Part shown: positions 8,321-55,680 of the stretch, one piece after another | How the letters are laid out: the number at the start of each line of letters is the position of its first letter | How positions within the stretch are numbered: position 1 is the first letter of the stretch | Assembly: GCA_963678315.1 (NCBI GenBank) | Contig: OY782781.1 | Span: 2,208,001 to 2,272,000 of the forward strand | From: Candidatus Cloacimonadales bacterium | GTDB lineage: Bacteria; Cloacimonadota; Cloacimonadia; Cloacimonadales; JAFGVF01 | Direction: 5' to 3' | Length of the DNA stretch: 64,000 bases | Translations under genes and position numbers: made by a program | The notes under the pieces: generated by a model | The model's input: the letters and a program-made list of their open reading frames with translations, nothing else | Told to the model about the DNA's origin: nothing | Database searches by the model: none

Positions 8321-9338
8321 TTAACTTCCTAATATAGAATAAAATAAAAAATACTAATGGAATAATATAGTAATAAAGCAAATTACTTACTTCCGGTAAT
8401 AGAAGAAGTGTACCCATACTTAGAATAATTAAAGCTCCAATTATTTTAAATGTTACAGCCATGACTTCCAAAGTCTTTTGTGATTTAATAAAACTTGTGG
8501 ATACAGTTTTAGTAAAATGAGCCATTAAGTTAAGAGTAACTAAAGTTGTTGCCATACCCATTGCCATTGCTATGACCATGAATAATCCAATTCCAAACAT
8601 GTCCATCTGCATTGCATATACTGCAATAACAACTGTACCTGGGCATGGAACTAATCCAATTGCAAGAGCAGTTAAGTAGAGGTTGCCTTTTTTATCTTGT
8701 GTATGTTGATGGGTTTTACCAAAAAATACACTGAACAACATATAGAATCCAAGTATAATGAATATTCCATAAGCAATATTTAACCCTATCATTGAGTACT
8801 TAGTTGAACCTGTAAGTATGCTTACGCTAAGGAGTTTTAGAATACCTACTAAAGTTAAGCCTGAAAGTGAATGTAGAAAAGCAAAGAATAGACTTGATCC
8901 TATTATAGATAGAAAATTAACCCTAGAAGCTACTACTTGTCCTACCATGAATATTTTACCATGACCTGGACCTAATGAATGAATAATACCATATAGAAAA
9001 GCGATCCCAAGTGCAATAAAGATATAGTTTTTAGAATCATTATCTTTTATCTTTCTAATTGTTCTGGATAATTTAGTCCTAATTTCATGCTGCATTTCTG
9101 TATTCTTTTCATAAAATGATTTATCTTCCACCTTAGAACTTGTTGCTTCTACCCTTCTTATATTTTTCTTAGTTCTAGTGATAGTTTCAATAGAATCGAC
9201 TTTTGTTTGAACTTTTTGTTCTCTTGCAATAGCTTTCTCTCTATCTTCACTACTTCTTTTCTTATCTGATCTAAATTGAGCGTTTAAGCAAACAGCCAAA
9301 AGCACTAGCACTACTATAAATATTATTTTCTTATTCAT
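8301..9338 (-). CDS. NicO/RcnA-family nickel/cobalt(/zinc) transporter
   Basis: YGIIHSLGPGHGK and GLVPCPG motifs, short His-containing loop, multiple TM segments. Confidence 0.88.
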   Translation of the reverse strand: MNKKIIFIVVLVLLAVCLNAQFRSDKKRSSEDREKAIAREQKVQTKVDSIETITRTKKNIRRVEATSSKVEDKSFYEKNTEMQHEIRTKLSRTIRKIKDNDSKNYIFIALGIAFLYGIIHSLGPGHGKIFMVGQVVASRVNFLSIIGSSLFFAFLHSLSGLTLVGILKLLSVSILTGSTKYSMIGLNIAYGIFIILGFYMLFSVFFGKTHQHTQDKKGNLYLTALAIGLVPCPGTVVIAVYAMQMDMFGIGLFMVIAMAMGMATTLVTLNLMAHFTKTVSTSFIKSQKTLEVMAVTFKIIGALIILSMGTLLLLPEVSNLLYYYIIPLVFFILFYIRKLNVAKRV

Positions 9339-36040: not shown

Positions 36041-36694
36041 CTAAATTAAATTGAAGTTCATATATGGCACATCCTTGAGATCTTCTATTTTGGGAACTAG
36101 GATAATATCATTGCAATTAGTTAGATGCTGAATTATCTCAATATTTTCTCTTATCATTTGAGAATCAATACCCTTACTATCAGACATAATGATATTTATT
36201 TTACTAATGTTACAAAATTGTAGAGCTTTTATAGACAAAATAGTGTGGTTTTGCGTACCTAAACCAGCGCGAGTAACTAAAATCACTTCTGCATCTAATT
36301 CTTTAATTAAATCTATCATACAGTAATCTTTTGTTATTGGTACAAAGAGTCCGCCGGCACCTTCACAAATCAAGATTTCTGAATCATTAGCAGTTCTTTT
36401 AATTTTATTCACAAGCTCTTGAATATCTATAGAATAATTATCATCTTTAGCAGCATAATAAGGGGCTTTAGGATTAGTAAATATTTTATAGCACTTTTTG
36501 GTTATGTTTCCATTAGACTTACCTAGAACTTTCAAAGCATCGCTATCTTCACTATAAACATTTTTGCAGCCGGTTTGTAACGGCTTAAAATAATCTACAT
36601 CTATATTGTTTTCTTCAAAGTAATGATAAAGCAATTTCGCTATAATGCTCTTCCCTACATCAGTATCTGTTCCTGTAATAAATAGAATTCTCAT
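36041..36694 (-). CDS. bioD: Dethiobiotin synthetase
   Basis: GTDTDVGKS, FKPLQTG, EGAGG and LGTQNHT motifs. Confidence 0.95.
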   Translation of the reverse strand: MRILFITGTDTDVGKSIIAKLLYHYFEENNIDVDYFKPLQTGCKNVYSEDSDALKVLGKSNGNITKKCYKIFTNPKAPYYAAKDDNYSIDIQELVNKIKRTANDSEILICEGAGGLFVPITKDYCMIDLIKELDAEVILVTRAGLGTQNHTILSIKALQFCNISKINIIMSDSKGIDSQMIRENIEIIQHLTNCNDIILVPKIEDLKDVPYMNFNLI

Positions 36695-37803
36695 TTTAAG
36701 GCTTCCTTTAATGCTTTAATTAAAACATTTACATCTTCAGTCGTGTGATTTGAAGTTAAACTTATTCTAAGCATCGCTTTATTATAATCAACAGTAGGAT
36801 ACTTTGCAGGGAGAACTAATATGTTACTCTTGTACAAACTTTCATACACTTGATTACATGACCTAATTGAATCCATTGGTATGGATATAATTTGATGTTT
36901 ACCTGTGTATTTAATAATGTATTTTTTTAAGGTATGTTTTGCATAGTCGACTATGCTAGCTAGTTTCTCTCTCTTGCAATCTTGCGAGTGAACATATTCA
37001 ATTGTAGAATCAAGTGCATAGAAGTATTTTTCTGGGAGTGCAGTCGTATAGATTAATTCTTCAGCAAAATTTATTAAATAATCTTTAACCACTTTGGGAC
37101 ATAAGAGGAATCCTCCAAAAAGTCCATAAGCTTTTCCAAAAGTACCAATTTTAATAACTGCTTTATTGGTAAGTCCTAAACCATTTTGTCCTAAAACACC
37201 GACTGCATGGGCTTCATCTACAATAAATTTATGACTAGCTCTTAATAAATCAACGTCATTTACTGATTTCCCTGACATACTAAACAATGATTCCGTTACG
37301 ATGTAGAAGTCTTCAAAAGACTTTGATTTCTTAAGTAAGCTTTGAATATCACAATGTCTATAGCTTCTAATTGTTGCTTCACTTTGCTTTAATCCATTAA
37401 CTATACTATTATGAGATTGCTTATCATAGAACACTTTATCTTTGTTAGAAAATAGATGCTTAAAAGTTGCAATATTTAATTGGTATCCTGAATTAAATAG
37501 TAAAGCTGACTCATAATTATACATTTCAGCTAACTTCTCTTCAATATCATTAATTATTGACAGATTCCCTGAAACAAGCCTTGATGCAGAACTTCCATAA
37601 TTTCTATCTTTTGTAAGTTCATCTAAGTGACTCCTAAACTTCTTATCTGAAGTTAGACCTAAATAATCATTAGATGTGAAATTTAAGTATCTTGTCTTTC
37701 CTATATACGCATATCTGTCAGAAGGTTTAGTAATTGTCTTTAGTTTTCTATATAGATATTGTTCTTGTCTACTTATTAAAGAATATTCTAAATGCTTAAA
37801 CAT
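36691..37803 (-). CDS. bioF: 8-amino-7-oxononanoate synthase
   Basis: SNDYLGL, SRLVSG, ESLFSMSG, DEAH, PLP lysine in GTFGKAYG; biotin operon context. Confidence 0.92.
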   Translation of the reverse strand: MFKHLEYSLISRQEQYLYRKLKTITKPSDRYAYIGKTRYLNFTSNDYLGLTSDKKFRSHLDELTKDRNYGSSASRLVSGNLSIINDIEEKLAEMYNYESALLFNSGYQLNIATFKHLFSNKDKVFYDKQSHNSIVNGLKQSEATIRSYRHCDIQSLLKKSKSFEDFYIVTESLFSMSGKSVNDVDLLRASHKFIVDEAHAVGVLGQNGLGLTNKAVIKIGTFGKAYGLFGGFLLCPKVVKDYLINFAEELIYTTALPEKYFYALDSTIEYVHSQDCKREKLASIVDYAKHTLKKYIIKYTGKHQIISIPMDSIRSCNQVYESLYKSNILVLPAKYPTVDYNKAMLRISLTSNHTTEDVNVLIKALKEALK

Positions 37804-38204
37804 TTGAACCTCTTATGCATAAGTATATTGCTTTTATTATATAGTCCTTCATTAATAAGACCTATATATATCATTGATTTTGTTGTTTGTTGATTGATAA
37901 TTGTTGTCACTTCATATAAAATTGCATTTGCGACTATTTCTACTACTCTTGCAAAAGTAATAACTACAATATTACTTTCAAAATCATAATGAGGATATTG
38001 TAGCTCTTTTATTGATAATAGAAAAGCATGTTTATCAAAATTCATTAAATATCTCGCATGTATTCCAGCTGATTGAGCAAGGAATTCAATAAAATTAAAA
38101 TCATTCCAATCTTTCATAAGATATTTTGTTTTAATTGATTGAACATCGCAAGATAGAATTTTATTAATCATTAATGAAGTTTCTAGATTCGTGTTAATTT
38201 TCAT
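37788..38204 (-). CDS. Hotdog-fold dehydratase-like subunit carrying the acidic E-x-x-AQ motif (ApeP-like)
   Basis: IEFLAQSAGIHAR...HAFLLSIKEL resembles the FabZ EAMAQ helix; the His motif is absent. Confidence 0.6.
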   Translation of the reverse strand: MKINTNLETSLMINKILSCDVQSIKTKYLMKDWNDFNFIEFLAQSAGIHARYLMNFDKHAFLLSIKELQYPHYDFESNIVVITFARVVEIVANAILYEVTTIINQQTTKSMIYIGLINEGLYNKSNILMHKRFKCLSI

Positions 38205-39372
38205 TTAAATGATACCTTATGATAACTACAGAATTTTGACCTCCAAAGCCCATACTATTAACAAGTATAGTAAACGATTTCTTTTCTTTACTTAATTTCA
38301 TGTTTTTTTTGAGTATATTGAAATCATCAATTGATGACTGACTAAAATTCGATTTTGGTATAAAGCCCTTATCTAAACATGATAGTAATAAACATAATTC
38401 AGTAAGACCTGAAGCTGCTGATAAATGACCAATAATACTCTTCATAGTCATAACAATAGGTTTATAATCTCCGAATATATTTTTAAGAACCTTCTTTTCA
38501 GCAAGATCATTTGCTTCTGTTCCTGTAGCATGGGCAAGCACTAAATCTATTTGACAAGAACTTAAGTCTGCTTGTCTCAGAGCGTTAATTATTGCTTGTG
38601 TTAATCCTTTACCTTCTGGATTAGGTGAAGTTAAAGAAAAGCAATCCATTGTCGAGGAATGAGCTATTAATTCAATCTTTGTTTTATTGTACTTCTTAGC
38701 AATTTCTTCATTTGCGATAATCATAGATGATCCACCTTCTCCAGGAATAAATCCAAAATCTTCTTGATGGTAAGGTTGATATTGACTTCTTGTTAGTTTT
38801 AAAGCACCGATTGAATTATATGCGTCTAGTCCATTCCCAGTCAATCGACTATCTCCACAACTACACAATACATAAGCAGACATATTATACTTGATTCTAT
38901 CGAATGAAGTTCCTAATGCTTGCAGAGATGCCGAACAAGCAGTTCCTAAGCTTATACTCTCACCACAAATACCTGTTCTTTTTGCTATTACAGAAGCCGC
39001 AGTATTCGGTAAATATTGAAGAATCCATGCTTTCTTACTATTATCTGAATTAGCAATTGGAAAATTACCAAAGTTTGGTCCCGCTCCAACAATAATTGAT
39101 CCATTTCCCAAGTGTATATATTCTTGATTAAGTCTCTTCCAAACAGAAAGAGCACTAGCTACAGAAAATAGAGCACCTCGATTTAGATATCTTTTTTCTG
39201 GAAGTCTTTGGACAAAATCTTTATAGTTGAAACTTGTAATAGGAAATGTTCTAATAGAATCCTTTGATGTATAGATTGTTTGGTCAAAACATTCTAATGA
39301 TGCTAATATCTCTTTACCATTATTTCCTATATGAGTTATTAATGAATAATCAAGGATAAATACTTTGTTCAT
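38194..39372 (-). CDS. Beta-ketoacyl-ACP synthase (FabF/FabB-like, Cys-His-His triad)
   Basis: TACSAS, AHATGT, KSIIGH and NSMGFGGQN motifs. Confidence 0.92.
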   Translation of the reverse strand: MNKVFILDYSLITHIGNNGKEILASLECFDQTIYTSKDSIRTFPITSFNYKDFVQRLPEKRYLNRGALFSVASALSVWKRLNQEYIHLGNGSIIVGAGPNFGNFPIANSDNSKKAWILQYLPNTAASVIAKRTGICGESISLGTACSASLQALGTSFDRIKYNMSAYVLCSCGDSRLTGNGLDAYNSIGALKLTRSQYQPYHQEDFGFIPGEGGSSMIIANEEIAKKYNKTKIELIAHSSTMDCFSLTSPNPEGKGLTQAIINALRQADLSSCQIDLVLAHATGTEANDLAEKKVLKNIFGDYKPIVMTMKSIIGHLSAASGLTELCLLLSCLDKGFIPKSNFSQSSIDDFNILKKNMKLSKEKKSFTILVNSMGFGGQNSVVIIRYHLNEN

Positions 39373-39767
39373 ATCTGTCTTTGTTTTGCATAGATGTAAT
39401 CAACAATATCTGATACTTTTAACACTGGTCCATTACTTATATCTTCAAGGATATCATTAATTCTTTCTTTGGACAAATGAGAGTATTTCTTTTCTAACTC
39501 AAAAAAAAGCTCTTTATTCTCTGATTTATATCTCACAATATCAGTCCTTAGATTTTTTAAGAAGATGATATCGGAGCTAAAAAAGGATGTGTTACTAGCT
39601 AAGGTAAACTCTTTTTTTATATCAATCGCTAACTCCATTAAGTCGATTGATTCAGCTTCTAGCTCTCTTATTATGTAAGTATCACTGCTAATTACATTGA
39701 TATCAATATCTAGTAAATCTGAGATAATTTCTTTGAGTTTTATATAAATTTCTTTTTTATTTAACAT
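39369..39767 (-). CDS. Atypical enlarged acyl carrier protein
   Basis: LKEIISDLL...ELEAESIDLMELA (phosphopantetheine Ser) and C-terminal LKVSDIVDYI, separated by a long insertion. Confidence 0.8.
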   Translation of the reverse strand: MLNKKEIYIKLKEIISDLLDIDINVISSDTYIIRELEAESIDLMELAIDIKKEFTLASNTSFFSSDIIFLKNLRTDIVRYKSENKELFFELEKKYSHLSKERINDILEDISNGPVLKVSDIVDYIYAKQRQI

Positions 39768-40731
39768 TATTAAATCCTTTATCTAAATTAATTATATTCC
39801 CATGCATTAACCAAGTTTCTTCCTTAAGAAATAGAGCCATAAATGATGTAATCTCTTCAATTCCTAAGACCTTGTCTTTAGATAGACTGACTTGCATATC
39901 ATTATATCGACCACTCTCTATATATGTTGGTCTAATAATAATTGACTTAACACCCTTTTTTCTGAGTTCATTGCCTAGTGCTAAGTATATGTTTTCTATA
40001 GCAGTTTTACTTGCTAGGTAGAATGATTGTCCTTGATTAAATCTATTTACTGCATTTGATGAGACGTAGATTAGCCTACCAAAGCGTTTTATTCTCATAA
40101 TATTACTTACTTCTCTCAAAAGTATAATCTTATTTGTAACATTGATTCTTAGGTATTCTTCAATATCAGCATTTAAAGATGTAGTAATAAGACTTTCATA
40201 TCTTGAATGCAAAAAATCAAAAACATAAGCAAATTCTTTATCTTTGAAATAATCAATATTACTCAAAGAATTAAGATCTACCTTTATCCATTCTACATTC
40301 GTGTTTACTTTTAAAAGAGGCTTATTTTTATTATAGCTAGCAACAACTTTATACTTAGTTAAATCAATTTTATTTATAAGCTTTTGACCAAGTTCACAAG
40401 ATCCACCTAGTATTAGTACTCTTGTTTTTAAGTATATGGACTTATAAAAATATATTTTTCCTTTTGCATAAACTTGTGTATTGTCATAGAGAGTACAAGT
40501 AGCAAGTTCTTCTTTAATCTCTATTTTTGCGCTATATATCTTTGGTTTAGCAAATTTATAAAACTTAAACCTAGAGATATTTTTTATATGATTAGGCTCA
40601 ATTTCATTCTTTATAAAATTTATAAATGAAGCTATAATCAATGATCCTGGAACTAAAGGATTACTTGGAAAATGCTCCTGGTATATTAAATCTTCTTCAT
40701 TGAAGTGAAATGTACTCTTTAATTGAAACAC
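39757..40731 (-). CDS. Fusion of a FabA/Z-like dehydratase half (ApeI-like) and a FabG-like SDR ketoreductase (GTG start)
   Basis: N-terminal EHFPSNPLVPG; then ILGGSCELG, VSS and YLASK SDR motifs. Confidence 0.8.
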   Translation of the reverse strand: MFQLKSTFHFNEEDLIYQEHFPSNPLVPGSLIIASFINFIKNEIEPNHIKNISRFKFYKFAKPKIYSAKIEIKEELATCTLYDNTQVYAKGKIYFYKSIYLKTRVLILGGSCELGQKLINKIDLTKYKVVASYNKNKPLLKVNTNVEWIKVDLNSLSNIDYFKDKEFAYVFDFLHSRYESLITTSLNADIEEYLRINVTNKIILLREVSNIMRIKRFGRLIYVSSNAVNRFNQGQSFYLASKTAIENIYLALGNELRKKGVKSIIIRPTYIESGRYNDMQVSLSKDKVLGIEEITSFMALFLKEETWLMHGNIINLDKGFNNVK

Positions 40732-42089
40732 TATCCGATAACCTCAAGAATAGAATCATAAGTAATGTTTAGCAATCTTTCAAAGTCATCTTGACTAATT
40801 GATAGAGGAGGCATTATAACAATGATATCTCCCAATGGACGTAAAATTAGCCCCTTTTCACGTGCTTTAAGTATAATTTTATGGCCTACCTGGTCTTTTT
40901 GAGGAAAATTCTCTTTTGTTGTTTTTTCTTTTACTAGCTCAATAGCTATCATAATTCCTTTATTTCTTATATCTCCAACATGTTTTAACAAAGCAAATTT
41001 ATACTTAAAGTCATCGAATAATTGTATATTTTTTGCCACATTATCTAAAGTCTTTTCCTCTTCGAATAAATCTATGTTAGCTATTGCTACTGCTGAAGCA
41101 AGAGCATTACCTGTAAAAGTATGTCCATGATAAAAAGTTCTGCATTCTTCAGGCTCACCTAGAAAAGCTTCATAAATTTCTTCAGTTGTAACTGTAGCTG
41201 CTAATGGAATATATCCACCAGTAATACCCTTTGCCATACAAATTATATCAGGCTTTACATCTTCTTGCTGGCAAGCGAACATTGTACCTGTTTTACCAAA
41301 TCCTACTGCTACCTCATCACATATCATTAATATTTCATACTTTGTACATAGCCTTCTTACTTCTTTTAAATAACCCTGAGGATGAACAATAAGTCCACAA
41401 GCTCCTTGAACTAAAGGCTCAATTACAAGAGCTGCAATTTCATTGTGATTGTTTGCCATGATTTCTTCTAATTGCCTAAGACAATAATCTTTACATTCTT
41501 CTTCAGTCATACCACCATTTAACCTATAGCTATAAGGAGATTCAGCTTTGAATGAATTAAACAGTAGAGATGAATAAACTTTATGGAATAAATCAATTCC
41601 CCCGACACTTACAGATCCAATTGTGTCACCATGGTAGGCAGATTTATATGATATGAATTTTCTCTTGTTTTTAGAACCGTTTATTGATTGTTGTTGATAC
41701 TGGTAAGCCATTTTGAGAGCAATTTCAACAGAAGTTGACCCATTATCTGAGTAGAATACTCTAGTTAGATTATCTGGGGTGATTTCAATTATCTTATCAG
41801 ATAATTCAATTGCTACTGAATTTGTCTGGCCTAGAAGAGTTGAATGAGATACTTTATGAACTTGATTAATAATAGCTTCATTTAGTTTAGGATGATTATG
41901 GCCATGGACATTAGTCCATATAGAAGAAATACCATCTATATATTTTTTACCTTCAATATCATACAAATATATCCCTTCTCCCCTTTCTATAATCAAGTGT
42001 TCTTCATTATTTAATTGTTTCATTTGTGCAAAAGGGTACCACATGTTTTGCTTTGAAGACTTCATTAAATTTTCTTTTCTAGATTCCAT
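40731..42089 (-). CDS. bioA: 7,8-diaminononanoate aminotransferase
   Basis: WYPFAQM, DNGSTSVEIALKMA, YHGDT, DEVAVGFG and AKGITGG motifs. Confidence 0.96.
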   Translation of the reverse strand: MESRKENLMKSSKQNMWYPFAQMKQLNNEEHLIIERGEGIYLYDIEGKKYIDGISSIWTNVHGHNHPKLNEAIINQVHKVSHSTLLGQTNSVAIELSDKIIEITPDNLTRVFYSDNGSTSVEIALKMAYQYQQQSINGSKNKRKFISYKSAYHGDTIGSVSVGGIDLFHKVYSSLLFNSFKAESPYSYRLNGGMTEEECKDYCLRQLEEIMANNHNEIAALVIEPLVQGACGLIVHPQGYLKEVRRLCTKYEILMICDEVAVGFGKTGTMFACQQEDVKPDIICMAKGITGGYIPLAATVTTEEIYEAFLGEPEECRTFYHGHTFTGNALASAVAIANIDLFEEEKTLDNVAKNIQLFDDFKYKFALLKHVGDIRNKGIMIAIELVKEKTTKENFPQKDQVGHKIILKAREKGLILRPLGDIIVIMPPLSISQDDFERLLNITYDSILEVIG

Positions 42090-43017
42090 AAGTTACTAAT
42101 CCTTGATCTCTTATCATTTGCTTATCCTCATCAATTGACCTTCCAGTAGTTGTTAAATAATCTCCAATCATAATTCCATTAGCTCCTGCCTGGAAAATTT
42201 TATCCTGTAGATGTTTTAATGTCTTCTCCCTACCACCAGCTATACAAATGTTAATATCTGGATTGATAACTCTAAATAGACTTACTACCCTAAGAGCTTC
42301 TTCAGGATCCAATAACGCTTGTTTTTCTAATGGTGTGTTTGCAATAGGATTAAGAAAGTTCAATGGAATAGCATTAATATCTAACATGCTTATATACTTG
42401 GCCATTTCATAACGTTGTTCCCAAGACTCTCCCATACCAATTATTCCACCACAGCAAACTTCTAGTTCTGCTTCTTTTGCATTTTTTATTGTTATGACAG
42501 AATCTTCAAAGTCATGACTTGAACAGATACTTGGAAAGAATGTTGGAGATGTTTCAATATTATGATGATATCTATCAAAACCAATTATCTTTAACTTATC
42601 GGCTAATTGTTTGCTTAGTAATCCAAAGGAAGCACATAATCTTAAGTTTGTTTTTTCCTTGATTTTGCAAATTACAGGTTCAAGCCTTTCTAACTCTTCA
42701 AATGTAATATCTCTTCCACTAGTAACAATCGAAAATTGGGTTGCTCCATTATCAAAAGCTTTTGTAGCACTGCTAAATATCTGATCGTTACTTAGTAAAT
42801 TGTATTCTGTGATATTAGTGTTATAATGAACTGATTGAGCACAATAGGCACAATTTTCCGGACATCTACCAGATTTTGCATTGATTATAGCACATTGGTA
42901 TATTTTATTACCATGTTTGCTATTTCTTAACAAATGTGTTTTTGCTAATAACTTATCTAAATCTTCATTAATAACATAATTTATTAATTCATAGTCTATC
43001 TCAAATTCATCTAACAT
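42079..43017 (-). CDS. bioB: Biotin synthase
   Basis: NAKSGRCPENCAYCAQS, YHHNIET, CCGGIIGMGE and GDYLTT. ATG 43017 preferred over GTG 43029 because of the AAGGTG SD. Confidence 0.96.
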   Translation of the reverse strand: MLDEFEIDYELINYVINEDLDKLLAKTHLLRNSKHGNKIYQCAIINAKSGRCPENCAYCAQSVHYNTNITEYNLLSNDQIFSSATKAFDNGATQFSIVTSGRDITFEELERLEPVICKIKEKTNLRLCASFGLLSKQLADKLKIIGFDRYHHNIETSPTFFPSICSSHDFEDSVITIKNAKEAELEVCCGGIIGMGESWEQRYEMAKYISMLDINAIPLNFLNPIANTPLEKQALLDPEEALRVVSLFRVINPDINICIAGGREKTLKHLQDKIFQAGANGIMIGDYLTTTGRSIDEDKQMIRDQGLVTYGI

Positions 43018-43020
43018 TTT

Positions 43021-43053
43021 TTTGTACACCTTCTATCTTTTAGGGTGTACATT
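43021..43053. promoter_or_regulatory. BirA-operator-like spaced palindrome
   Basis: tt-TGTACACC-N13-GGTGTACA-tt, overlapping the bioB SD and downstream of a minus-strand TTGACA at 43071-43076. Confidence 0.7.
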
Positions 43054-43335: not shown

Positions 43336-43367
43336 AAAAAGAGCGAGAATGTATGTTCTCGCTCTTT
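43336..43367 (-). terminator. Intrinsic terminator of the vor operon
   Basis: AAAGAGCGAGAA...TTCTCGCTCTTT hairpin with A/U tract. Confidence 0.85.
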
Positions 43368-43389: not shown

Positions 43390-43929
43390 TTAACTTTTTG
43401 CTAATTCAATACCTTTTTTAATTGCTACTAAGTTCATTGCAAGCAACTCAGGATTTCTTTTTTCTAAGAAAGCTGTTAAGTCACTTTCTAAAGTTTCATA
43501 TTTAACCATATCAGTTAAGCCGATAATAATACCGATAGCTAACATGTTTAGAACTTTATCTGAACCGATTTCAGTTGCCATTTTTGATAATGGTGCGCTG
43601 ATAGTTTTAATTCCATCATAATTAGGAATATTATTACATAAATCTTCATTTGCAATAATAAATCCGCCTTTTGTTACATTTGAAGCAAATTTATCAATTG
43701 ATGGTTGGTTAAGAGCAATAAGTACGTTAGGGAAAGTAACGATTGGTGATGCGATTGGGTTCTCTGAGATAACAGCTGCTACATTAGCTGTACCTCCACG
43801 CATTTCGGGACCGTATGATGGCAACCATGAAACGTGTTTACCTTCTTTCATACCAGCTTTAGCTAAGAATTTACCTATAGTTAAAGCACCTTGTCCACCA
43901 AAACCTGAACTTATAATTTCATACATCAT
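43390..43929 (-). CDS. 2-oxoacid:ferredoxin oxidoreductase gamma subunit (Vor type)
   Basis: GFGGQG and PSYGPEMRGGTAN motifs. Confidence 0.92.
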   Translation of the reverse strand: MMYEIISSGFGGQGALTIGKFLAKAGMKEGKHVSWLPSYGPEMRGGTANVAAVISENPIASPIVTFPNVLIALNQPSIDKFASNVTKGGFIIANEDLCNNIPNYDGIKTISAPLSKMATEIGSDKVLNMLAIGIIIGLTDMVKYETLESDLTAFLEKRNPELLAMNLVAIKKGIELAKS

Positions 43930-44675
43930 TATTTCACCTCTCCTTCATCTCTGAATTGACCAATTGGGAAGAAAGGTAACATGTTATCTTTAGCCCATTT
44001 TAATGAATCAACAGGAGAAATACCCCAGTTAGTAGGACAAGTTGATAGAAGCTCAACAAAAGTAAAGCCTTTACCTTCTTTATTATATTGAAGAGCTTTT
44101 TTAACAGCTTTTTTAGCTTTAATAATATCAGCAGGAGATAATAATGAAACTCTTTCAATAAAGTATGGTGCAGATAAAGTATTTAATAATTCACATACTT
44201 TAATTGGCATACCTACATCATCTGTTTTTCTACCATAAGGTGAAGTTGTTGTTTTCATTTCTGGTAATGTTGTTGGAGCCATTTGACCACCAGTCATACC
44301 ATAAATAGCATTATTTACGAAGAATACAGAGATATTTTCACCTCTATTAGCAGCATGAACGATTTCAGCAGTACCGATAGCTGCTAAGTCACCATCACCT
44401 TGATAAGTGAACACTTGCATATCAGGTCTAGCTCTTTTAATTCCAGTTGCTACAGCTGGAGCTCTACCATGAGCAGCTTCTGCCATATCCATGTCAAAAA
44501 ACTTATATGCAAATACTGAACAACCAACAGGTGCAACACCAGTTGCAGTATCTTGAATTTCTAATTCGTCTATAGCTTCGGCTATCAATCTGTGAGCTAC
44601 ACCATGAAGACAGCCTGGACAGTAAGTAAACTGTAAATCAGTTAAAGATTTAGGTCTTGTTGCGATAACTTCCAT
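43929..44675 (-). CDS. 2-oxoacid:ferredoxin oxidoreductase TPP-binding beta subunit (Vor type)
   Basis: YCPGCLHG, GDGD...NN and CPTNWG motifs. Confidence 0.93.
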   Translation of the reverse strand: MEVIATRPKSLTDLQFTYCPGCLHGVAHRLIAEAIDELEIQDTATGVAPVGCSVFAYKFFDMDMAEAAHGRAPAVATGIKRARPDMQVFTYQGDGDLAAIGTAEIVHAANRGENISVFFVNNAIYGMTGGQMAPTTLPEMKTTTSPYGRKTDDVGMPIKVCELLNTLSAPYFIERVSLLSPADIIKAKKAVKKALQYNKEGKGFTFVELLSTCPTNWGISPVDSLKWAKDNMLPFFPIGQFRDEGEVK

Positions 44676-44683
44676 TATATCTC

Positions 44684-45763
44684 CTATAAATTCTCTTCAA
44701 TTTGTGCTTTGATTTCTTCAGGTGTAAATACTATACCACCAACTTTTCCGTAAAATTCAACTGGAATTTTACCATTAACAGCTAATTTTACATCTTCAAC
44801 CATTTGACCTAAGTTCAATTCAAAAACCATAACTTTTTTAACTTTATCAGTTAAAGCATTAGCAATAGTTGAATATGGATAAGGCCATACAGTGATAGGT
44901 CTGATTAAACCAATATTCTTACCTTCTGCATTTAATTGGTCAATTGCAGATTTAACGATTCTTGAAGCAGTACCAAAGGCAACACAAACCATTTCGTTAT
45001 CAGGGTTTATATTATATTCTTCTACACGAACTTCATTTTCTTCGATTAATTTATATTTTTTACCTAAATCAATAACATGTTGTTCTAGAACTGAAGGATC
45101 AATTTCTAAAGAGTTGATTTCATTATGATGAGGAGCTTCACCTTCTTCTTTTGGATGAATACACCAATCTTTATGATCATCACCTTGCTTAGCTATTTCT
45201 TCATCTGAAACTGCGTCTTTAAATTCAACAGGTTCCATCATTTGACCAAGCATACCATCAGATAAAATCATTACAGGTATTAAATATTTATCTGCTAAGT
45301 CAAAAGCTTCAGATGCCATATCAGCAAATTCTTGAACTGATGATGGAGCTAATACAACTGTATGATAGTCACCATGACCACCACCTTTTGTTGCTTGGAA
45401 ATAATCACCTTGAGCAGGTTGGATATCGCCTAAGCCAGGTCCACCACGTTGAACGTTAACGATAACAGCAGGAAGATTAGCACCTGCAATATATGAAATA
45501 CCTTCCATCTTCAATGAGATACCAGGAGATGAAGATGATGTCATTACTCTTTTACCAGTACCAGCAGCACCGTAAACCATGTTAATAGCAGCAACTTCAC
45601 TCTCAGCTTGTAAAAAAGTACCATTAACGGTAGGCATTTTTTTAGCCATATATTCAATTAACTCACTTTGTGGAGTAATAGGATAAGCGAAATAGAGTCT
45701 ACAACCTGATCTAATAGCAGCTTCAGCGACAGCTTCGTTACCTTTCATTAAAACTTTTGCCAT
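44684..45763 (-). CDS. vorB: 2-ketoisovalerate-type oxidoreductase alpha subunit (VorB family)
   Basis: KGNEAVAEAA, YPITPQSE, SSSPGISL and RGGPGLG motifs. Confidence 0.88.
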   Translation of the reverse strand: MAKVLMKGNEAVAEAAIRSGCRLYFAYPITPQSELIEYMAKKMPTVNGTFLQAESEVAAINMVYGAAGTGKRVMTSSSSPGISLKMEGISYIAGANLPAVIVNVQRGGPGLGDIQPAQGDYFQATKGGGHGDYHTVVLAPSSVQEFADMASEAFDLADKYLIPVMILSDGMLGQMMEPVEFKDAVSDEEIAKQGDDHKDWCIHPKEEGEAPHHNEINSLEIDPSVLEQHVIDLGKKYKLIEENEVRVEEYNINPDNEMVCVAFGTASRIVKSAIDQLNAEGKNIGLIRPITVWPYPYSTIANALTDKVKKVMVFELNLGQMVEDVKLAVNGKIPVEFYGKVGGIVFTPEEIKAQIEENL

Positions 45764-45774
45764 TCCTTATCTCC

Positions 45775-45978
45775 TTATTTTTCGATGGTTATTGCTACAT
45801 CTGGACATGTTGTGTAGCATAATTTACAAGCTATACATGCTTCTTGGTCAAAACATTCAGCATAATTATAACCTTTTTCATTAATATTTTCGGAAAATCT
45901 GATTATCTTCTTAGGACATGCAGCGATGCATAATCCACATCCTTTACAATAAGAAGGATTAACTGTCATTCTTGCCAT
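45775..45978 (-). CDS. 2[4Fe-4S] ferredoxin (oxidoreductase delta subunit)
   Basis: CKGCGLCIAACP and CIACKLCYTTCP motifs. Confidence 0.93.
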   Translation of the reverse strand: MARMTVNPSYCKGCGLCIAACPKKIIRFSENINEKGYNYAECFDQEACIACKLCYTTCPDVAITIEK

Positions 45979-45996
45979 AACCATGACTCCTTTATT

Positions 45997-48977: not shown

Positions 48978-50621
48978 CTACTTGATGTGTAACAATTTTG
49001 AAGTCTTACATTTTCCTTCAGAAGAAACTTTAACCAAGTAGACACCACTTGGAAGTTCTTTATCATTTTCATTACAACCATTCCAAACTATCTCTAAATG
49101 GCCTGATCTATTATTCTGATTCATAAAACTTTTCACTTTTTGTCCCTTAATATTGTATATTTCTACATTGACCCGAACATTTGATTTCGTATCGATTTTT
49201 ATATTTGACTTGCTTCTAAATGGATTAGGATAATTATTTACCGTTAAATTATTTACAGGAGTTGAATCTTCTGAATTAGAAACAATTTCACTTATTCCTT
49301 CTAAATTTATATTCCAGTTTGAGTTGTTAGGGTCACTTGAGGAAATAGTTAAAGATCCATTATAGCTTGATTCTTCAGTAGGGGTAAAATCAACATTGAT
49401 TATTCCTATATCACCTTGTCCAATACTATTAGGAAAACTTATATTATTAAAGACCTCTACATTAGAATGAACATTATTTATTTGCAATATGTCAGTTCCA
49501 TTATTAACAACAGGTATTGATAATGTTACTGCATTATTAAGATCATAAGCATAGGCAACAAAATTATCAACAGGTATAAACATATCGGGATAACGTGATG
49601 TACTTGTGTTTGACGTAATACTTGCAAGTCTATCTAATAGTTCTGGGTGCTCTATGAAAGGATTTGGTTTATTTTGGACTTCTTCTATTTCTTGAGCTCT
49701 GTATAATTCATAGTCACTAACAGGGTCTTGATAATACCAATTTCTTAAAACTTCTTGCTGACCAGCACTATTTAAAAAGTTGTTAGGATTATTATATCTA
49801 ATACTAAAGTAGAACATAGCTCTTGCCACATCTCCTTTGTGATCATCTCTTGGTTCAAATACGGTTGTACCGGATGAATTAGAGCCTCTCTTAGAACCAC
49901 CATCAGACCAATTAGAAGAAGATACTTCACCAAATGGAAGGTTACCTCTTACACTATTAGCTTGTGAATCAGTTGGAAATAAATGGAACAAATCCGACTT
50001 TGCAGTACCTGTTGCCCCCATACTTTGAGGCCAAGTGTGTTCAGTATTGATTTGATTCCAATTAGGAATAGATCCAGGAGAACAATTGTACCATTCATCA
50101 GTATAAACACATCTAACCTGACCATTGTCATTGTCTATATATCCAAAAATCTCTATTCTTGCATCTTCATAGCTGATTGAAGTATGATTTCTAATGATAG
50201 CCGAAATTGCATTCTTGAGTTCAAAATCATATTTGTTGTAGGTTGTGTTATAAATACTTTCAGAGAATGTTCCTTGTGCTGATACTTCAATTGTTTGTAT
50301 TTCACTTCTAGCTTCATCAACGATAAATATAGCTGTATCATAGTTGATATTTGTTTCTGGTGAGAAGGTAACAGTAACTTCTATTTCTTCATTCGCAAAT
50401 AAACTAACATTATCATTACTTAATAAAATCTGTTCACTATCTTCAATTATATCTATGTTTAATTCATTATTAGTTAAATTGGTTATTGTAAAAACACCTT
50501 GAACCTCTCCCCCATCAATCACTGAGCCAAATTCTAATTCTGTTGTTGAGACTTGAAAAGAATTTGCCTTAATTGTCATTATAACAAATAATACTATAAA
50601 TATTACTAACGTTTTTTTCAT
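48978..50621 (-). CDS. Secreted endonuclease I (EndA/Bsn family) with Ig-like domains and a T9SS/FlgD-like C-terminal domain
   Basis: Signal peptide; NTEHTWPQS, DLFHLFP...NSVRGN and KGDVARAMFY; CTD YPNPF...YNIKGQKV...SGVY. Confidence 0.9.
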   Translation of the reverse strand: MKKTLVIFIVLFVIMTIKANSFQVSTTELEFGSVIDGGEVQGVFTITNLTNNELNIDIIEDSEQILLSNDNVSLFANEEIEVTVTFSPETNINYDTAIFIVDEARSEIQTIEVSAQGTFSESIYNTTYNKYDFELKNAISAIIRNHTSISYEDARIEIFGYIDNDNGQVRCVYTDEWYNCSPGSIPNWNQINTEHTWPQSMGATGTAKSDLFHLFPTDSQANSVRGNLPFGEVSSSNWSDGGSKRGSNSSGTTVFEPRDDHKGDVARAMFYFSIRYNNPNNFLNSAGQQEVLRNWYYQDPVSDYELYRAQEIEEVQNKPNPFIEHPELLDRLASITSNTSTSRYPDMFIPVDNFVAYAYDLNNAVTLSIPVVNNGTDILQINNVHSNVEVFNNISFPNSIGQGDIGIINVDFTPTEESSYNGSLTISSSDPNNSNWNINLEGISEIVSNSEDSTPVNNLTVNNYPNPFRSKSNIKIDTKSNVRVNVEIYNIKGQKVKSFMNQNNRSGHLEIVWNGCNENDKELPSGVYLVKVSSEGKCKTSKLLHIK

Positions 50622-51106: not shown

Positions 51107-52063
51107 CTATTTTATAATTGTAATTTTCTTAACTTGACTCCTTTCCCCATACTTAACATTTAGAAAGTATATGCCAGACGGATAATCTAAATTCTGAATC
51201 TGAAAATATCCTTTCTTTGATTTAAGATTGTTTTCAGAATAAACTAATCTACCTCTAAGGTCATAGAGAGACAGACTTATATTCTTATTACTTTTTTCCA
51301 TAAATTCAATATTGAAACTGTTTATACAAGGTTGCGGATATATCTGTTTGATTAGCTGATTCTGCATAGGTTCAACCTCTTGAGAATTTGACACTGTTTT
51401 ATGGTAGGTTACGATTAAGTGCGGATCATATGAATTTGATGAGGTTGGGTTATTTGAATATGAAACATAATCTGCTTCATATAGTCCTATATCATGACCT
51501 GGAGGGAATCTCAGTCTAAACTGTGAGTATCCACGTGAATGTTCTATATCATTAAGATAGCTCTCAGTAATTGGAAAGGAGACCCAGCCAACATGACCAC
51601 TATCTTGCAGAACACCTACATTGGAAGTAAGTGGTTCAAGATCAAAAACAGAAGGAGCTAAAGTCTCATACTCTATGTGGTCTATATTTACTGAGTAGGG
51701 TGTAGTGTAGTAGTGTGGCCAAACAAGATCTATCCCATTATCCCAATAGCGCCAACAGTAAAGTTGAAGTATTACATTTGCCACGACGTAATCATTGGGA
51801 ACAGGAATAGTCTCGAATGAAATAAATGATCTTAATTCAAAAATACCGGTTCCAACAAACTGAGCATAACCGTAGCCAATGTCTAAAGTTGTTAGATTGG
51901 GAAAATTGTAATAATCATGATAATCCATATTATAGTATATAGTCCCAGTCATAGGATTAGGTTCAGAGTATATTGTGTCAACAAGAACTGAGTCATCTCT
52001 ATCAGCATATAATTGTAGAATTAAGCTATATAGAATTAAAAAGATTAATAGATATCTCTTCAT
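51107..52063 (-). CDS. Secreted DNRLRE/CBM96-like domain protein with T9SS-type CTD, tandem copy 2
   Basis: Signal peptide; RSFISF...PHLIVTY domain; CTD IYPQP...YDLRGRLV...SGIYF...KKITIIK. Confidence 0.7.
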   Translation of the reverse strand: MKRYLLIFLILYSLILQLYADRDDSVLVDTIYSEPNPMTGTIYYNMDYHDYYNFPNLTTLDIGYGYAQFVGTGIFELRSFISFETIPVPNDYVVANVILQLYCWRYWDNGIDLVWPHYYTTPYSVNIDHIEYETLAPSVFDLEPLTSNVGVLQDSGHVGWVSFPITESYLNDIEHSRGYSQFRLRFPPGHDIGLYEADYVSYSNNPTSSNSYDPHLIVTYHKTVSNSQEVEPMQNQLIKQIYPQPCINSFNIEFMEKSNKNISLSLYDLRGRLVYSENNLKSKKGYFQIQNLDYPSGIYFLNVKYGERSQVKKITIIK

Positions 52064-52086
52064 TTCTTCCTCCTATTTATTTGCTA

Positions 52087-53043
52087 TTATTTTATAATTG
52101 TGATTTTCTTAACTTGACTTCTTTTCCCATCCTTAACCTTGATAAAATATATTCCTGATGGATAATCTAAGTTTTGCATTCGGAAAAGCCCCTTATTTGA
52201 TTTTAGATTATTTTCAGAATAAACTAATCTACCTCTAAGGTCATAAAGAGACAGACTTATGTTCTTATTACTTTTTTCCATAAATTCAATATTGAAACTG
52301 TTTATACAAGGTTGCGGATAGATCTGTTTGATTATTTGCTCCTGCATAGGTGTAACCTCTTCAGAATTTGACACTGATTTATGGTAGGTTACGATTAGGT
52401 GTGGATCATGCGAACTAGATGAAGTTGGGTTATTTGAATAATTTACAACATCTGCTTCATATAGAGATATATCATGACCTGGTGGAAATCTCAGCCTAAA
52501 CTGAGAATAATCATGCGATTGTTCAATATCGTTAAGATAGCTCTCAGTAATCGGGAAGGAAATCCAACCAACATAAGCACTATCCTGCAAGACCCCCACA
52601 CTGGAAGTAAGTGACTCAACATCGAAAACTGAAGGTTCTAAGGCTCCAAACTGTATGTGATCAATATTTACTGAATAAGGTGTAGAATAATAGTGTGGCC
52701 ATATAAAGTCGGTGCCATTATCCCAATAGTACTGACATTTAAGACGTAACATTACACTTGATATGACGTAATCATTGGGAACAGGAATAGTCTCGAATGA
52801 AATAAATGATCTTAATTCAAAAATACCGGTTCCAACAAACTGAGCGTAACCATAACCAATTTCTAAGGATGTTTGATTGGGAAAGTTATAATAATCATGA
52901 TAATCCATACTATAGTATATAGTCCCAGTCATAGGATTAGGCTCAGCGTATATTGTATCAACAAGAACTGATTCATATCTATCAGCATATAACTGTAGAA
53001 TTATGCTAAGTAGAATTAATAAGATTAAGAGATGTCTCTTCAT
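52087..53043 (-). CDS. Secreted DNRLRE/CBM96-like domain protein with T9SS-type CTD, tandem copy 1
   Basis: Gap-free paralogue of 51107-52063 at an offset of exactly 980 bp. Confidence 0.7.
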   Translation of the reverse strand: MKRHLLILLILLSIILQLYADRYESVLVDTIYAEPNPMTGTIYYSMDYHDYYNFPNQTSLEIGYGYAQFVGTGIFELRSFISFETIPVPNDYVISSVMLRLKCQYYWDNGTDFIWPHYYSTPYSVNIDHIQFGALEPSVFDVESLTSSVGVLQDSAYVGWISFPITESYLNDIEQSHDYSQFRLRFPPGHDISLYEADVVNYSNNPTSSSSHDPHLIVTYHKSVSNSEEVTPMQEQIIKQIYPQPCINSFNIEFMEKSNKNISLSLYDLRGRLVYSENNLKSNKGLFRMQNLDYPSGIYFIKVKDGKRSQVKKITIIK

Positions 53044-53507: not shown

Positions 53508-54083
53508 CTATTTTTTAGCAGCTTCGTAACCAGCTTTAAGAGCTTTTACATTAGCTTGAACAATAGCTTCACCTTTTCTACCAAAAACAGCATTAATTGC
53601 CTCTTCAAGTTTTTCTAAAGAAAGACCTAAAATCTGTGCAGATGCTCCTAGCATTACAATATTCATTGAACGAGCTGAACCGCAATCTTTAGCAATTGCA
53701 TCAGCATCTATAAGAATATGGTTTTCTAAGCTTTCAATCTTTTTATACACTTCTTCAGCTTCAGGATAATTAGGAATGTTCACAAAAGGTGTTTTGTTAG
53801 CAACAACCCAACCTGTTTTGCTTAAGTAAGGTAGGTATCTTAATGATTCCATAGGTTCAACTGAAAGAATTAAATCAGCTCCACCCATAGGGATTAAATC
53901 AGAATGAATTTCATCATCAGAGATTCTTAAATGTGATTGTACATCACCACCACGCTGAGACATTCCGTGAACTTCTGCTTGCTTAATATTCATGTTTGTT
54001 GAAAGAGCTGCATGACCAATCATAGTAGCGATAGTCAAAATACCTTGTCCACCAACACCAGCTAAAATTATATCTTTTTTCAT
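53508..54083 (-). CDS. iorB: Indolepyruvate:ferredoxin oxidoreductase beta subunit
   Basis: GVGGQG and AEVHGMSQRGGDV motifs. Confidence 0.94.
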   Translation of the reverse strand: MKKDIILAGVGGQGILTIATMIGHAALSTNMNIKQAEVHGMSQRGGDVQSHLRISDDEIHSDLIPMGGADLILSVEPMESLRYLPYLSKTGWVVANKTPFVNIPNYPEAEEVYKKIESLENHILIDADAIAKDCGSARSMNIVMLGASAQILGLSLEKLEEAINAVFGRKGEAIVQANVKALKAGYEAAKK

Positions 54084-54093
54084 GTCTTGGCTC

Positions 54094-55680
54094 CTATCTT
54101 TTCTTTCTTTTTAATGTTTGGATACATTCTCTTCTTGGAATGATTACAGAAACGCCATCATACTCAATTTCTTCTCTGAAGATTTCAACATTCTTTTCAT
54201 GTTGGTTTTTAAGAGGAGTAATTACGCGGATGTGAGCAGGATCAACACCAAGACCTTCACATACAGCTTCAATTCTACCGAAACCTGTATAGTCTTGACC
54301 ACCTGTCATACCTGTTGTACTGTTATCTAAAATAACTACAACTAAGTTGTTTTTATCAAATACGCAGTCCATAAGACCTGTCATACCTGAATGGAAGAAA
54401 GTAGAGTCACCAATAACGGCAATAGCAGGATGAAGACCTGCATCAGCAGCACCTTTAGCCATTGTGATAGAAGCACCCATATCAAGACATGTATTAATAG
54501 CATTATAAGGAGGTAAGAAACCTAGAGTATAACAACCGATGTCTGAGAATACTTTGCCCATAGGGTAATCTTTTAATACTTCATTGATAGCACCAAAAGA
54601 ATCAATGTGAGGACAACCAACACAAAGTGCAGGTGGTCTTCCAGCAACCATTTCTGGTACATTTTCACCGTATGTATCTTCTAAACCAAGAGCTTTAGCT
54701 ACATGATTAGGGTTTAACTCACCTACACGTGGAAGAGTGCCATCTAATCTACCTTTCACTTTATCATTACCAGAGATAAAACCTTTAAGTTGTTGCTCTA
54801 CAACAGGCATACCTTCTTCAATAACAAGAACTTTATCACATTCGTTGAACATTCTTTCAACTTGTTTTCTTGGTAGTGGATATTGAGATATTTTAAGGAT
54901 AGGATGTTTAAAATCAACTTTTTGAACATTTTCCATTAAGTAGTTATAACCTAAACCACAAGCAATAACACCAAGACTCCTATCTTCACCATCAACATAC
55001 TTGTTAAATGGAGATTCTTCAGAAGCTTTTTCTAATTCAGCTTGCATTGGTACTAATACATCGTACTTTGCCCTTGACATAGCAGGTAGAAGCATGAATT
55101 GATTAGGGTTTTCAGGAAGTTTTATATCATTAAGAGGTAAAACTTCTTTAGTTTCAACACCAGCTCTCGAGTGAGAAAGTCTAGTTTCTAATCTAAGCAT
55201 TACTGGTAATTTAAACTTTTCAGAAAGTTCAAAAGCATGGAAAGCAGCATCATAGCATTCTTGTTGATTTGATGGCTCAATACAAGGGATTAATGCAAAA
55301 TTAGCAAAGACTCTAGAGTCTTGTTCATTTTGTGAAGAGTGCATTGAAGGATCATCAGCAACTGCAACAATAAGTCCACCATTAGCACCAGTCATAGCTG
55401 AGTTCATGAATGGATCAGCTGCAACATTAAGTCCAACGTGTTTCATCGTTACCATAGTTCTTTTGCCAGTATAAGACATACCAACAGCAGCTTCCATAGC
55501 AGTTTTTTCATTTGAAGCCCAAGTTCTATGAACTTGTCTTTCTTCAGCTAGTTGATTTTTTTGTACATATTCAATAATTTCGGTTGAAGGTGTTCCTGGA
55601 TAACCAAAAGCACCAGACATACCAGCATCTAACGCACCTTGCGCCAGAGCTTCATCGCCGAGTAGTAGTAATTTTTTCAT
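54094..55680 (-). CDS. iorA: Indolepyruvate:ferredoxin oxidoreductase alpha subunit (short form)
   Basis: YPGTPSTEI, MKHVGLNVAAD, SSQNEQDSR, CVGCPH, DIGCY and GDSTFFHSG motifs. Confidence 0.94.
   Translation of the reverse strand: MKKLLLLGDEALAQGALDAGMSGAFGYPGTPSTEIIEYVQKNQLAEERQVHRTWASNEKTAMEAAVGMSYTGKRTMVTMKHVGLNVAADPFMNSAMTGANGGLIVAVADDPSMHSSQNEQDSRVFANFALIPCIEPSNQQECYDAAFHAFELSEKFKLPVMLRLETRLSHSRAGVETKEVLPLNDIKLPENPNQFMLLPAMSRAKYDVLVPMQAELEKASEESPFNKYVDGEDRSLGVIACGLGYNYLMENVQKVDFKHPILKISQYPLPRKQVERMFNECDKVLVIEEGMPVVEQQLKGFISGNDKVKGRLDGTLPRVGELNPNHVAKALGLEDTYGENVPEMVAGRPPALCVGCPHIDSFGAINEVLKDYPMGKVFSDIGCYTLGFLPPYNAINTCLDMGASITMAKGAADAGLHPAIAVIGDSTFFHSGMTGLMDCVFDKNNLVVVILDNSTTGMTGGQDYTGFGRIEAVCEGLGVDPAHIRVITPLKNQHEKNVEIFREEIEYDGVSVIIPRRECIQTLKRKKR

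Follow-up and report, generated by a model that had tools for sequence, protein, structure and literature searches.

Bacterial pimelate synthesis for biotin has been solved for few routes only, and the route that relies on enzymes resembling those of fatty acid synthesis (FAS) is the best-supported one still without biochemistry. In alpha-proteobacteria, BioZ, a ketoacyl synthase of class III (KAS III), condenses glutaryl-CoA with malonyl-acyl carrier protein (malonyl-ACP) and uses the housekeeping ACP and reductases. The present report concerns an eight-gene biotin (bio) operon containing four FAS-like genes, located on the minus strand at positions 36041–43029 of a 64,000-nucleotide stretch of Candidatus Cloacimonadales DNA (contig OY782781.1), henceforth referred to as the window.

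In E. coli, the housekeeping FAS takes a disguised, methyl-ester substrate (PMC10102598). For Desulfovibrio, an extended bio operon with homologues of ACP, 3-oxoacyl-ACP synthase, reductase and dehydratase was described, and a pimeloyl route was predicted from it (Rodionov 2004, PMC545781). DVU2558–DVU2565 and the nitroreductase-like DVU1220 were later found to be needed without biotin by random barcode transposon-site sequencing (RB-TnSeq), and a conversion by which malonyl-ACP becomes pimeloyl-ACP was favored, with biochemistry said to remain to be done (Trotter 2023, PMC10102598). The range of the module, as given in the relevant section of that paper, is Desulfobacterota and Desulfurispirillum. 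A sequence-only reading of the window had pointed to fab-like genes in Desulfovibrio biotin operons, correctly (Rodionov 2004, PMC545781), and had proposed a pimeloyl-ACP pathway with its own ACP, ketosynthase (KS), ketoreductase (KR) and dehydratase (DH). That pathway is supported by the present analysis but is not a new idea, having been published as a prediction in 2004 and given genetic support in 2023; what is added here is a new example in a new phylum with a variant layout.

Operon organization and gene assignments

The operon is probably (roughly 80%) a self-contained biotin pathway, with pimeloyl-ACP assembled on its own ACP by a small, dedicated type II synthase encoded by the four FAS-like genes. 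The genome searched consists of one contig of 2.99 Mb and is 97.9% complete. Its SecA (residues 1–500) shares 75% identity with a 'Candidatus Cloacimonetes bacterium' protein, and all named matches among the best 120 belong to Cloacimonetes/Cloacimonadota. Eight intact open reading frames (ORFs), all on the minus strand, are arranged as bioB-bioA-DH/KR fusion-ACP-KS-HD2-bioF-bioD, where HD2 denotes a second hot-dog protein, and the genes overlap at all seven junctions (by 11, 1, 11, 4, 11, 16 and 4 nt, in operon order). The ORF list and the family matches thus agree with the overlapping eight-gene bio operon, with FAS-like genes ahead of bioF, that had been described from the sequence alone. 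The span assigned to it was right for the operon itself but not for its end at 43053, since a 29-bp inverted repeat and not coding sequence lies there. The GC content of the operon is ~29–30% and that of the window 28–35%, a composition without anomaly.

Biotin synthase (bioB, 42079–43029) matched TIGR00433 at 376.3 bits (cut-off 225) and contains Radical_SAM and BATS domains; its start is more likely the ATG at 43017 than the GTG at 43029. Adenosylmethionine-8-amino-7-oxononanoate transaminase (bioA, 40731–42089) matched TIGR00508 at 551.1 bits (cut-off 405), and dethiobiotin synthase (bioD, 36041–36694) matched TIGR00347 at 146.9 bits (cut-off 83.3). The gene at 36691–37803 was assigned as bioF, 8-amino-7-oxononanoate synthase, because TIGR00858 is its best NCBIfam match (E 8e-86) and because of its position in the operon.

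The first of the FAS-like genes encodes a 324-residue fusion protein (39757–40731). Residues 1–100 (40432–40731) form the DH domain, a truncated FabZ/ApeI-like hot-dog with H20 in an HFPxxPxxPG motif and Ala34 at the Glu position, and residues ~101–324 (39757–40431) form the KR domain, which resembles 3-oxoacyl-ACP reductases of the short-chain dehydrogenase/reductase (SDR) family. The fusion matched adh_short at 52.9 bits, with an N-terminal FabA-like match of 17.4 bits (below 23), so that the DH/KR fusion of the sequence-only reading was borne out by an SDR domain behind an N-terminal FabA-like piece. The remaining three genes encode an ACP of 132 residues (39369–39767; PF00550, 23 bits, cut-off 20.8), a KS of 392 residues with a KAS I/II fold (38194–39372; PF00109/PF02801; Cys146-His281-His316) and HD2, a second FabZ-like hot-dog protein of 138 residues (37788–38204) with the Glu (E40) and an invariant H49-x-R51, and without the His loop. 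No family was matched by HD2 in searches of Pfam and NCBIfam.

The DH-KR fusion is not an assembly error, since contigs of two further studies run across the junction with no insertion or deletion. One 18,257-base contig from another sample spans all 7013 bases of positions 36041–43053 with 111 substitutions and zero gaps, and the operon in strains from other studies is ~98.4% identical, showing substitutions and no frame-breaking indels. At 36928–36932 in bioF, contigs from runs X5 and X6 lose one base and gain one 3–4 bases further on; deletion and insertion compensate, and the frame is preserved in these strains.

Ketosynthase, ketoreductase and carrier protein

Residues C146, H281 and H316 of the KS were invariant in an alignment of 17 bio-type KSs and FabF, which confirmed the elongating Cys-His-His triad noticed earlier. 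An identity as FabF (KAS II) was nevertheless rejected: the triad is present, but the protein scored 161.4 bits against the fabF model TIGR03150, far under the cut-off of 493.75, and belongs to a separate clade. R61, R65 and R176 are invariant in the bio-type family, and FabF lacks them. Tyr185 occupies the position of Phe202, the back gate of FabF (bioRxiv 10.1101/2021.02.13.431092), as mapped by spacing from the catalytic Cys only.

The Ser-Tyr-Lys residues of the KR were invariant in seven bio-type KRs and FabG, and a GGSxxxG motif is present. A family-specific Arg is part of an 'SGR' loop that corresponds to 'ETD' in FabG. Ser40 of the ACP is invariant across bio-type ACPs and aligns to the phosphopantetheine Ser of AcpP; a conserved insertion of ~45 residues is common to nine bio-type ACPs and is missing from the 81-residue housekeeping AcpP. 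The arginines in KS, KR and HD2 may pair with the free distal carboxylate of the substrate, replacing the methyl-ester disguise.

A proposed dehydratase split between two proteins

Neither the DH domain nor HD2 is a standard FabZ, because the catalytic dyad is complete only across both proteins; the DH domain has His20 with Ala34, and HD2 has Glu40 without the His loop. The His of the HFPxxPxxPG motif is kept in 9/9 DH sequences and the Glu in 1/9, with Ala, Gln, His or Gly at the FabZ Glu position 14 residues after the His. In HD2, E40, A43, Q44, H49 and R51 are invariant in 14/14 cluster-linked sequences, and the motif E..AQ....H.R is invariant in all 28 sequences of a wider alignment. By hhalign, the genome's own FabZ was matched by the DH domain (94.6%, E 7e-08) and by HD2 (91.4%, E 9e-07), with Glu40 placed on the FabZ Glu. 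The predicted HD2 structure (predicted local distance difference test score, pLDDT, 89.3) was matched by Foldseek to FabZ 3D6X (template modeling score ~0.7) and to 6QSR_B, and the DH profile matched chain A of 6QSR (E 8e-05); no sequence match between HD2 and ApeP was detectable. The dehydratase-like character suggested for HD2 from the sequence therefore stands, by profile alignment as well as by fold. Together, the DH domain and HD2 may function like one FabZ.

Complex prediction with DH residues 1–100 and HD2 gave a median score of 0.91 (0.87, 0.92 and 0.91), compared with 0.00 for the best control, with at least 94% contact agreement between runs and a partner pLDDT of at least 86. The mark set for this score was passed by 116/157 solved complexes and 2/215 mismatched pairs, counts that hold only roughly here because the prediction was fed with our own alignments. 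The predicted interface includes DH residues 19–24 and 28–35 and HD2 residues 39–40. The model supports pairing of the two, and the pair is read as a putative single dehydratase with one composite site. In H. pylori FabZ, both monomers build each tunnel, the catalytic residues are His58' and Glu72, and the tunnel 'backdoor' is Phe83, 11 residues past Glu72 (PMC5143422); Arg51 of HD2 likewise lies 11 residues past Glu40. ApeI/ApeP has been described as a heterodimeric dehydratase that has one active site, and ApeI is at times fused to another enzyme (PMC8041823).

The looseness of the calibration counts against the heterodimer, as do three further points. One DH of the nine (locus L017) keeps the Glu, the HD2 and DH profiles did not match each other by hhalign (0.9%), and the heterodimer score may stem from the resemblance of the pair to FabZ dimers of solved structure and to 6QSR. 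Of the D. vulgaris proteins, Trotter (2023, PMC10102598), in the section cited, states that both have FabZ-like domains and nothing further. No paper treating a split-dyad heterodimer of these proteins was found in a literature search that left most subscription journals uncovered, and the split-dyad heterodimer may be the one point that is new.

Related loci and distribution

When named genomes were searched with an alignment of KSs, 80 loci were returned; no relative had been found with a single KS query. Thirteen of the 80 carry a bio-type module, in contexts of the DH-KR-ACP-KS-HD2-bioF-bioD type, and 67 are generic FabF-like, the two groups being split by KS score, context and then tree across a narrow score gap (155 vs 144 bits). 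Four of the generic loci have a weak opposite-strand match to the bioF family (84–110 bits), which was not counted as linkage. The bio-type loci come from Syntrophobacteraceae, Syntrophales, Desulfobacterales, Desulfoluna, Desulfovibrionaceae, a Cloacimonadota metagenome-assembled genome (MAG) and others. The order KS-HD2-bioF was found in all 12 loci that include the interval and also in a second Cloacimonadota genome, G070, where HD2 was found by profile search; the HD2 genes of L014, L027, L055 and L057 were missed by single-sequence search and found by profile. Since the order is kept throughout these informative loci and G070, it is not due to chance, and the expected linkage of KS homologues to bioF was seen in 12/12 loci with enough flank.

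The maximum-likelihood KS tree groups the bio-type KSs with 100/100 support and places four FabF-like outgroups, the genome's own FabF among them, outside this clade. The clade takes in the Desulfovibrionaceae loci L055 and L057. Because the gene order is shared and the KSs fall into this one clade, the operon is of the published kind. Within the clade, a metagenome protein of 46% identity is the only partner of the window KS, and relations are otherwise mostly unresolved. A nitroreductase-like gene lies in the cluster, between ACP and KS, in 4/13 related loci and in G070. DH and KR are separate genes in the eight related loci where both were seen. A query with the fused DH-KR in a large protein collection returned KR-alone relatives only; fused forms may have escaped this search because it requires shared 5-residue words.

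A sample of 201 Cloacimonadota genomes, this one included, contained a bio-type KS in two, this genome and G070 (243.9 bits), with FabF-level matches of at most 117 bits, or none, in the remainder. BioB exceeded its cut-off in these two genomes alone, and none of ten genomes of the same family reached it. Biotin synthesis is therefore rare among the sampled genomes of the phylum and always accompanied by the FAS-like module. The gene order in G070 is bioB-bioA-DH-KR-ACP-nitroreductase-KS-HD2-bioF. Downstream of bioF in that genome (locus L120, G070:C22) lie ArsR-type and SdpI-family genes; bioD is not adjacent, and the rest of the genome was not searched for it.

In 3/4 genomes of the same family, pepM18 adjoins the endonuclease I gene. 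Here the two are 13 kb apart, with bio, kor, an aminotransferase gene and hflX between them, an arrangement that does not amount to a clean cassette insertion. The KS tree leaves the origin of the three Cloacimonadota copies unresolved, and transfer is decided neither by composition nor by synteny or tree.

Two further observations were made among the related loci. A bacterial-type DH-KR-ACP-nitroreductase-KS cluster lies on a contig labeled as a Methanosarcinaceae archaeon MAG (L018, JBQVLY010000058.1), owing to misbinning or else to transfer. The bio cluster of a Desulfobacterales MAG has, between HD2 and bioF, a gene encoding a 23S rRNA intervening-sequence protein (PF05635; L021:3574-3939).

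Other pimelate routes and housekeeping fatty acid genes

Searches of the whole genome returned no BioC, with a best score of 56.6 bits against the model cut-off of 185, and no BioW, BioG, BioH or cytochrome P450; BioK, BioJ and BioV were not searched for. The absence of a BioC/BioH/BioG/BioW/P450 route, read earlier from the window, thus extends to the genome. Three FabH-like genes are present, namely a housekeeping fabH (C1:2708133, on the genome's contig) and a tandem pair (C1:750048-751988). None of them is in a bio context and the operon KS is of KAS I/II type, in keeping with the earlier statement that BioZ is missing; a BioZ identity was rejected on both counts, the KS not being a KAS III and the FabH-like genes being unlinked to bio genes. 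The tandem pair (263 and 212 bits, both short of the fabH cut-off) is followed by an SDR gene (C1:750033-752791) within a polysaccharide/glycosyltransferase cluster and may serve lipid or acyl decoration of surface sugars.

A housekeeping plsX-fabH-fabD-fabG-acpP-fabF-rnc operon lies 460 kb from the bio operon. Given this separate FAS operon, the ACP, KS and KR encoded with the bio genes constitute a dedicated second set. An ORF of 463 residues (C1:40585-41976), probably an LpxC-FabZ fusion, has the housekeeping FabZ domain as its C-terminus.

Proposed pathway and alternatives

Malonate would be transferred to the dedicated ACP, the housekeeping FabD being the probable enzyme, and the KS would condense malonyl-ACP with a dicarboxylic primer whose carboxylate is free and which is most likely malonyl. 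The 3-oxo group would then be reduced by the KR domain, water would be removed by the DH/HD2 heterodimer at its composite site (His20 of DH and Glu40 of HD2), and an enoyl reductase encoded elsewhere would close the cycle. Two such rounds would lead from C3 through C5 to C7, after which BioF would consume pimeloyl-ACP and, with BioA, BioD and BioB, carry out the four late steps. A methyl ester would be neither made nor removed. A bifunctional BirA may repress expression by acting at the repeat that covers the bioB start.

Several findings weigh against this pathway. No FabV was found in the genome and no FabI-like SDR stood out; the sole enoyl reductase candidate is a FabK-like protein of 367 residues (C1:1329037-1330140) scoring 132.7 bits against a cut-off of 453. 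The housekeeping enoyl reductase is itself uncertain, because this divergent protein is the only one recognized. The operon contains no nitroreductase-like gene, while D. vulgaris needs DVU1220, and the two PF00881 proteins of the genome are distant from the cluster-linked ones (E ~1e-5). BioF scored 288.1 bits against TIGR00858, below the cut-off of 426.45. The carboxylate role of the arginines has conservation and helix spacing as its only basis, and later biochemical work on the pathway was not found in the literature searched, which left most subscription journals uncovered.

Neither the primer nor the number of rounds is fixed by the sequence, and the same module could perform one elongation only, in which amino-acid catabolism supplies a glutaryl thioester (C5) that is extended to pimeloyl-ACP by the logic of BioZ, an existing glutaryl-primed route. 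Supply of a dicarboxylyl-CoA is possible in principle, since several 2-oxoacid:ferredoxin oxidoreductases are encoded, one operon of them directly upstream. This is nonetheless unlikely. The KS is of the elongating Cys-His-His type and not a CoA-primed KAS III, and the operon encodes no CoA-transferase, acyl-CoA:ACP transacylase or ligase. A terminator, moreover, divides the upstream oxidoreductase operon from the bio unit, and for D. vulgaris, Trotter (2023, PMC10102598) favors malonyl-ACP as the starting point for pimeloyl-ACP.

A hidden methyl-ester route, in which BioC and BioH have unrecognized counterparts elsewhere in the genome, a methyltransferase and an esterase, and methyl esters are processed by the dedicated enzymes, is very improbable. 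Fourteen class-I methyltransferase-like proteins do match the BioC model (E up to 0.01), but all of them, including the best at 56.6 bits, fall short of 185 bits, and the operon has none of them in its vicinity; BioH and BioG were likewise unmatched, in a search that did not extend to BioK, BioJ and BioV. A methyl-ester route also needs no KS, KR, DH or ACP of its own, because the E. coli housekeeping FAS accepts the disguised substrate (PMC10102598), and a private set would be superfluous. Scarcely credible is the notion that the FAS-like genes make another acyl-ACP and stand among the bio genes by accident, or that the operon is a decaying relic. It could draw on the low BioF score and on the 199 of 201 sampled phylum genomes without BioB above the cut-off, but every informative locus, from Thermodesulfobacteriota, Cloacimonadota and other MAGs alike, has this gene order, as does G070, the eight ORFs are intact with their catalytic residues kept, the ~98.4% identical strains show no frame-breaking indels, and the D. 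vulgaris orthologues have a biotin phenotype (PMC10102598).

The dedicated pimeloyl-ACP synthase can be extended to a bolder proposal for the whole family, which in its entirety is doubtful. In every such operon, DH and HD2 would form an obligate heterodimer contributing His and Glu, respectively, and His49-x-Arg51 on the tunnel helix of HD2 and the KS and KR arginines would hold the carboxylate. For the Cloacimonadota operon, the four genes would need only FabD and a reductase from the host and could dispense with a nitroreductase-like partner. If this is true, the carboxylate-holding residues are how dicarboxylates become elongated without the methyl-ester disguise, and the Cloacimonadota operon is the smallest natural form of the pathway.

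Regulation and neighboring genes

A perfect inverted repeat of 29 bp, TGTACACC-N13-GGTGTACA, covers the bioB ribosome-binding site (43023–43051, minus strand) and is a candidate BirA operator. The pattern TGTAnACC-N10-18-GGTnTACA has a single site in the 2.99-Mb genome, and the half-sites of the repeat resemble the published BirA sites in Table 1 of PMC545781. BirA itself (327 residues, C1:2312762-2313745) matched bifunctional models over its full length. The assignment is tentative because the repressor-domain model scored 47.9 bits, below its cut-off of 70, and because a BirA-like site was found upstream of bioB in only 1/5 related loci, which speaks against this mode of control.

The upstream limit of the bio unit is a hairpin terminator at 43338–43367 (minus strand; a stem of 12–13 bp followed by a T run) belonging to the upstream 2-oxoacid:ferredoxin oxidoreductase operon. 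A promoter scan showed no enrichment (44 found vs 44.7 expected), and a scan of the window found no terminator-like site after bioD.

Two separate 2-oxoacid:ferredoxin oxidoreductase gene sets lie on the minus strand of the window, at 43390–45984, directly upstream of the bio operon past the terminator, and at 53511–55680. Three consecutive ORFs (578, 1084 and 345 residues; 3346–9338, minus strand) without a Pfam match at E 1e-8 are situated between genes for a DUF1007 protein and a MacB-type ABC transporter. A protein of 1825 residues encoded at 15372–20846 (plus strand) combines an N-terminal Ser/Thr kinase, TPR repeats and a C-terminal histidine-kinase ATPase. A sorting domain for type IX secretion forms the end of each of two adjoining paralogues of 318 residues (51110–53043, minus strand) and is also present in the endonuclease I encoded at 48981–50621.

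Comparison with known systems

With this operon, the known range of the module reaches Cloacimonadota. The unit is compact at eight genes, has DH and KR naturally fused and lacks a nitroreductase-like gene, and is thus convenient for complementation and reconstitution. The split His/Glu dyad is a concrete and cheaply testable prediction for the whole family, and specific arginines are singled out as candidate carboxylate binders.

The closest described system is that of D. vulgaris Hildenborough, DVU2558–DVU2565, in which two FabZ-like proteins, a KR, an ACP and a KAS are likewise encoded between early and late bio genes. Both extended operons are without bioC, bioH, bioG and bioW, both have a BirA-like site at bioB, and their KSs fall into one clade. 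They differ in that the host here belongs to Cloacimonadota, DH and KR form one polypeptide, and the operon has no nitroreductase-like gene and the genome no close homologue of one. The Desulfobacterota proteins are only ~30–39% identical to those described here.

The E. coli BioC-BioH pathway shares with the one proposed here a pimeloyl-ACP product, two FAS-type rounds from a malonyl primer and BioF as the consumer. It is unlike it in lacking a private KS, KR, DH and ACP, whereas the Cloacimonadota pathway has no BioC or BioH/BioG and presumably carries free carboxylates. A dedicated condensing enzyme in a bio cluster, a dicarboxylic chain and the absence of a methyl ester are common to the BioZ route and the present operon, but the KS here is of the KAS I/II type with a Cys-His-His triad and is accompanied by its own ACP, KR and DH. 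For the dehydratase, the nearest parallel is ApeI/ApeP (6QSR), where two unlike FabZ-like hot-dog proteins are described as one heterodimer with a single active site and one protomer is sometimes fused; the DH domain resembles 6QSR_A by sequence and HD2 resembles 6QSR_B by fold. The substrate is an aromatic polyene there and would be a short dicarboxylate here, and the fusion partner is an acyl-ACP synthetase in that system and a KR in the Cloacimonadota protein.

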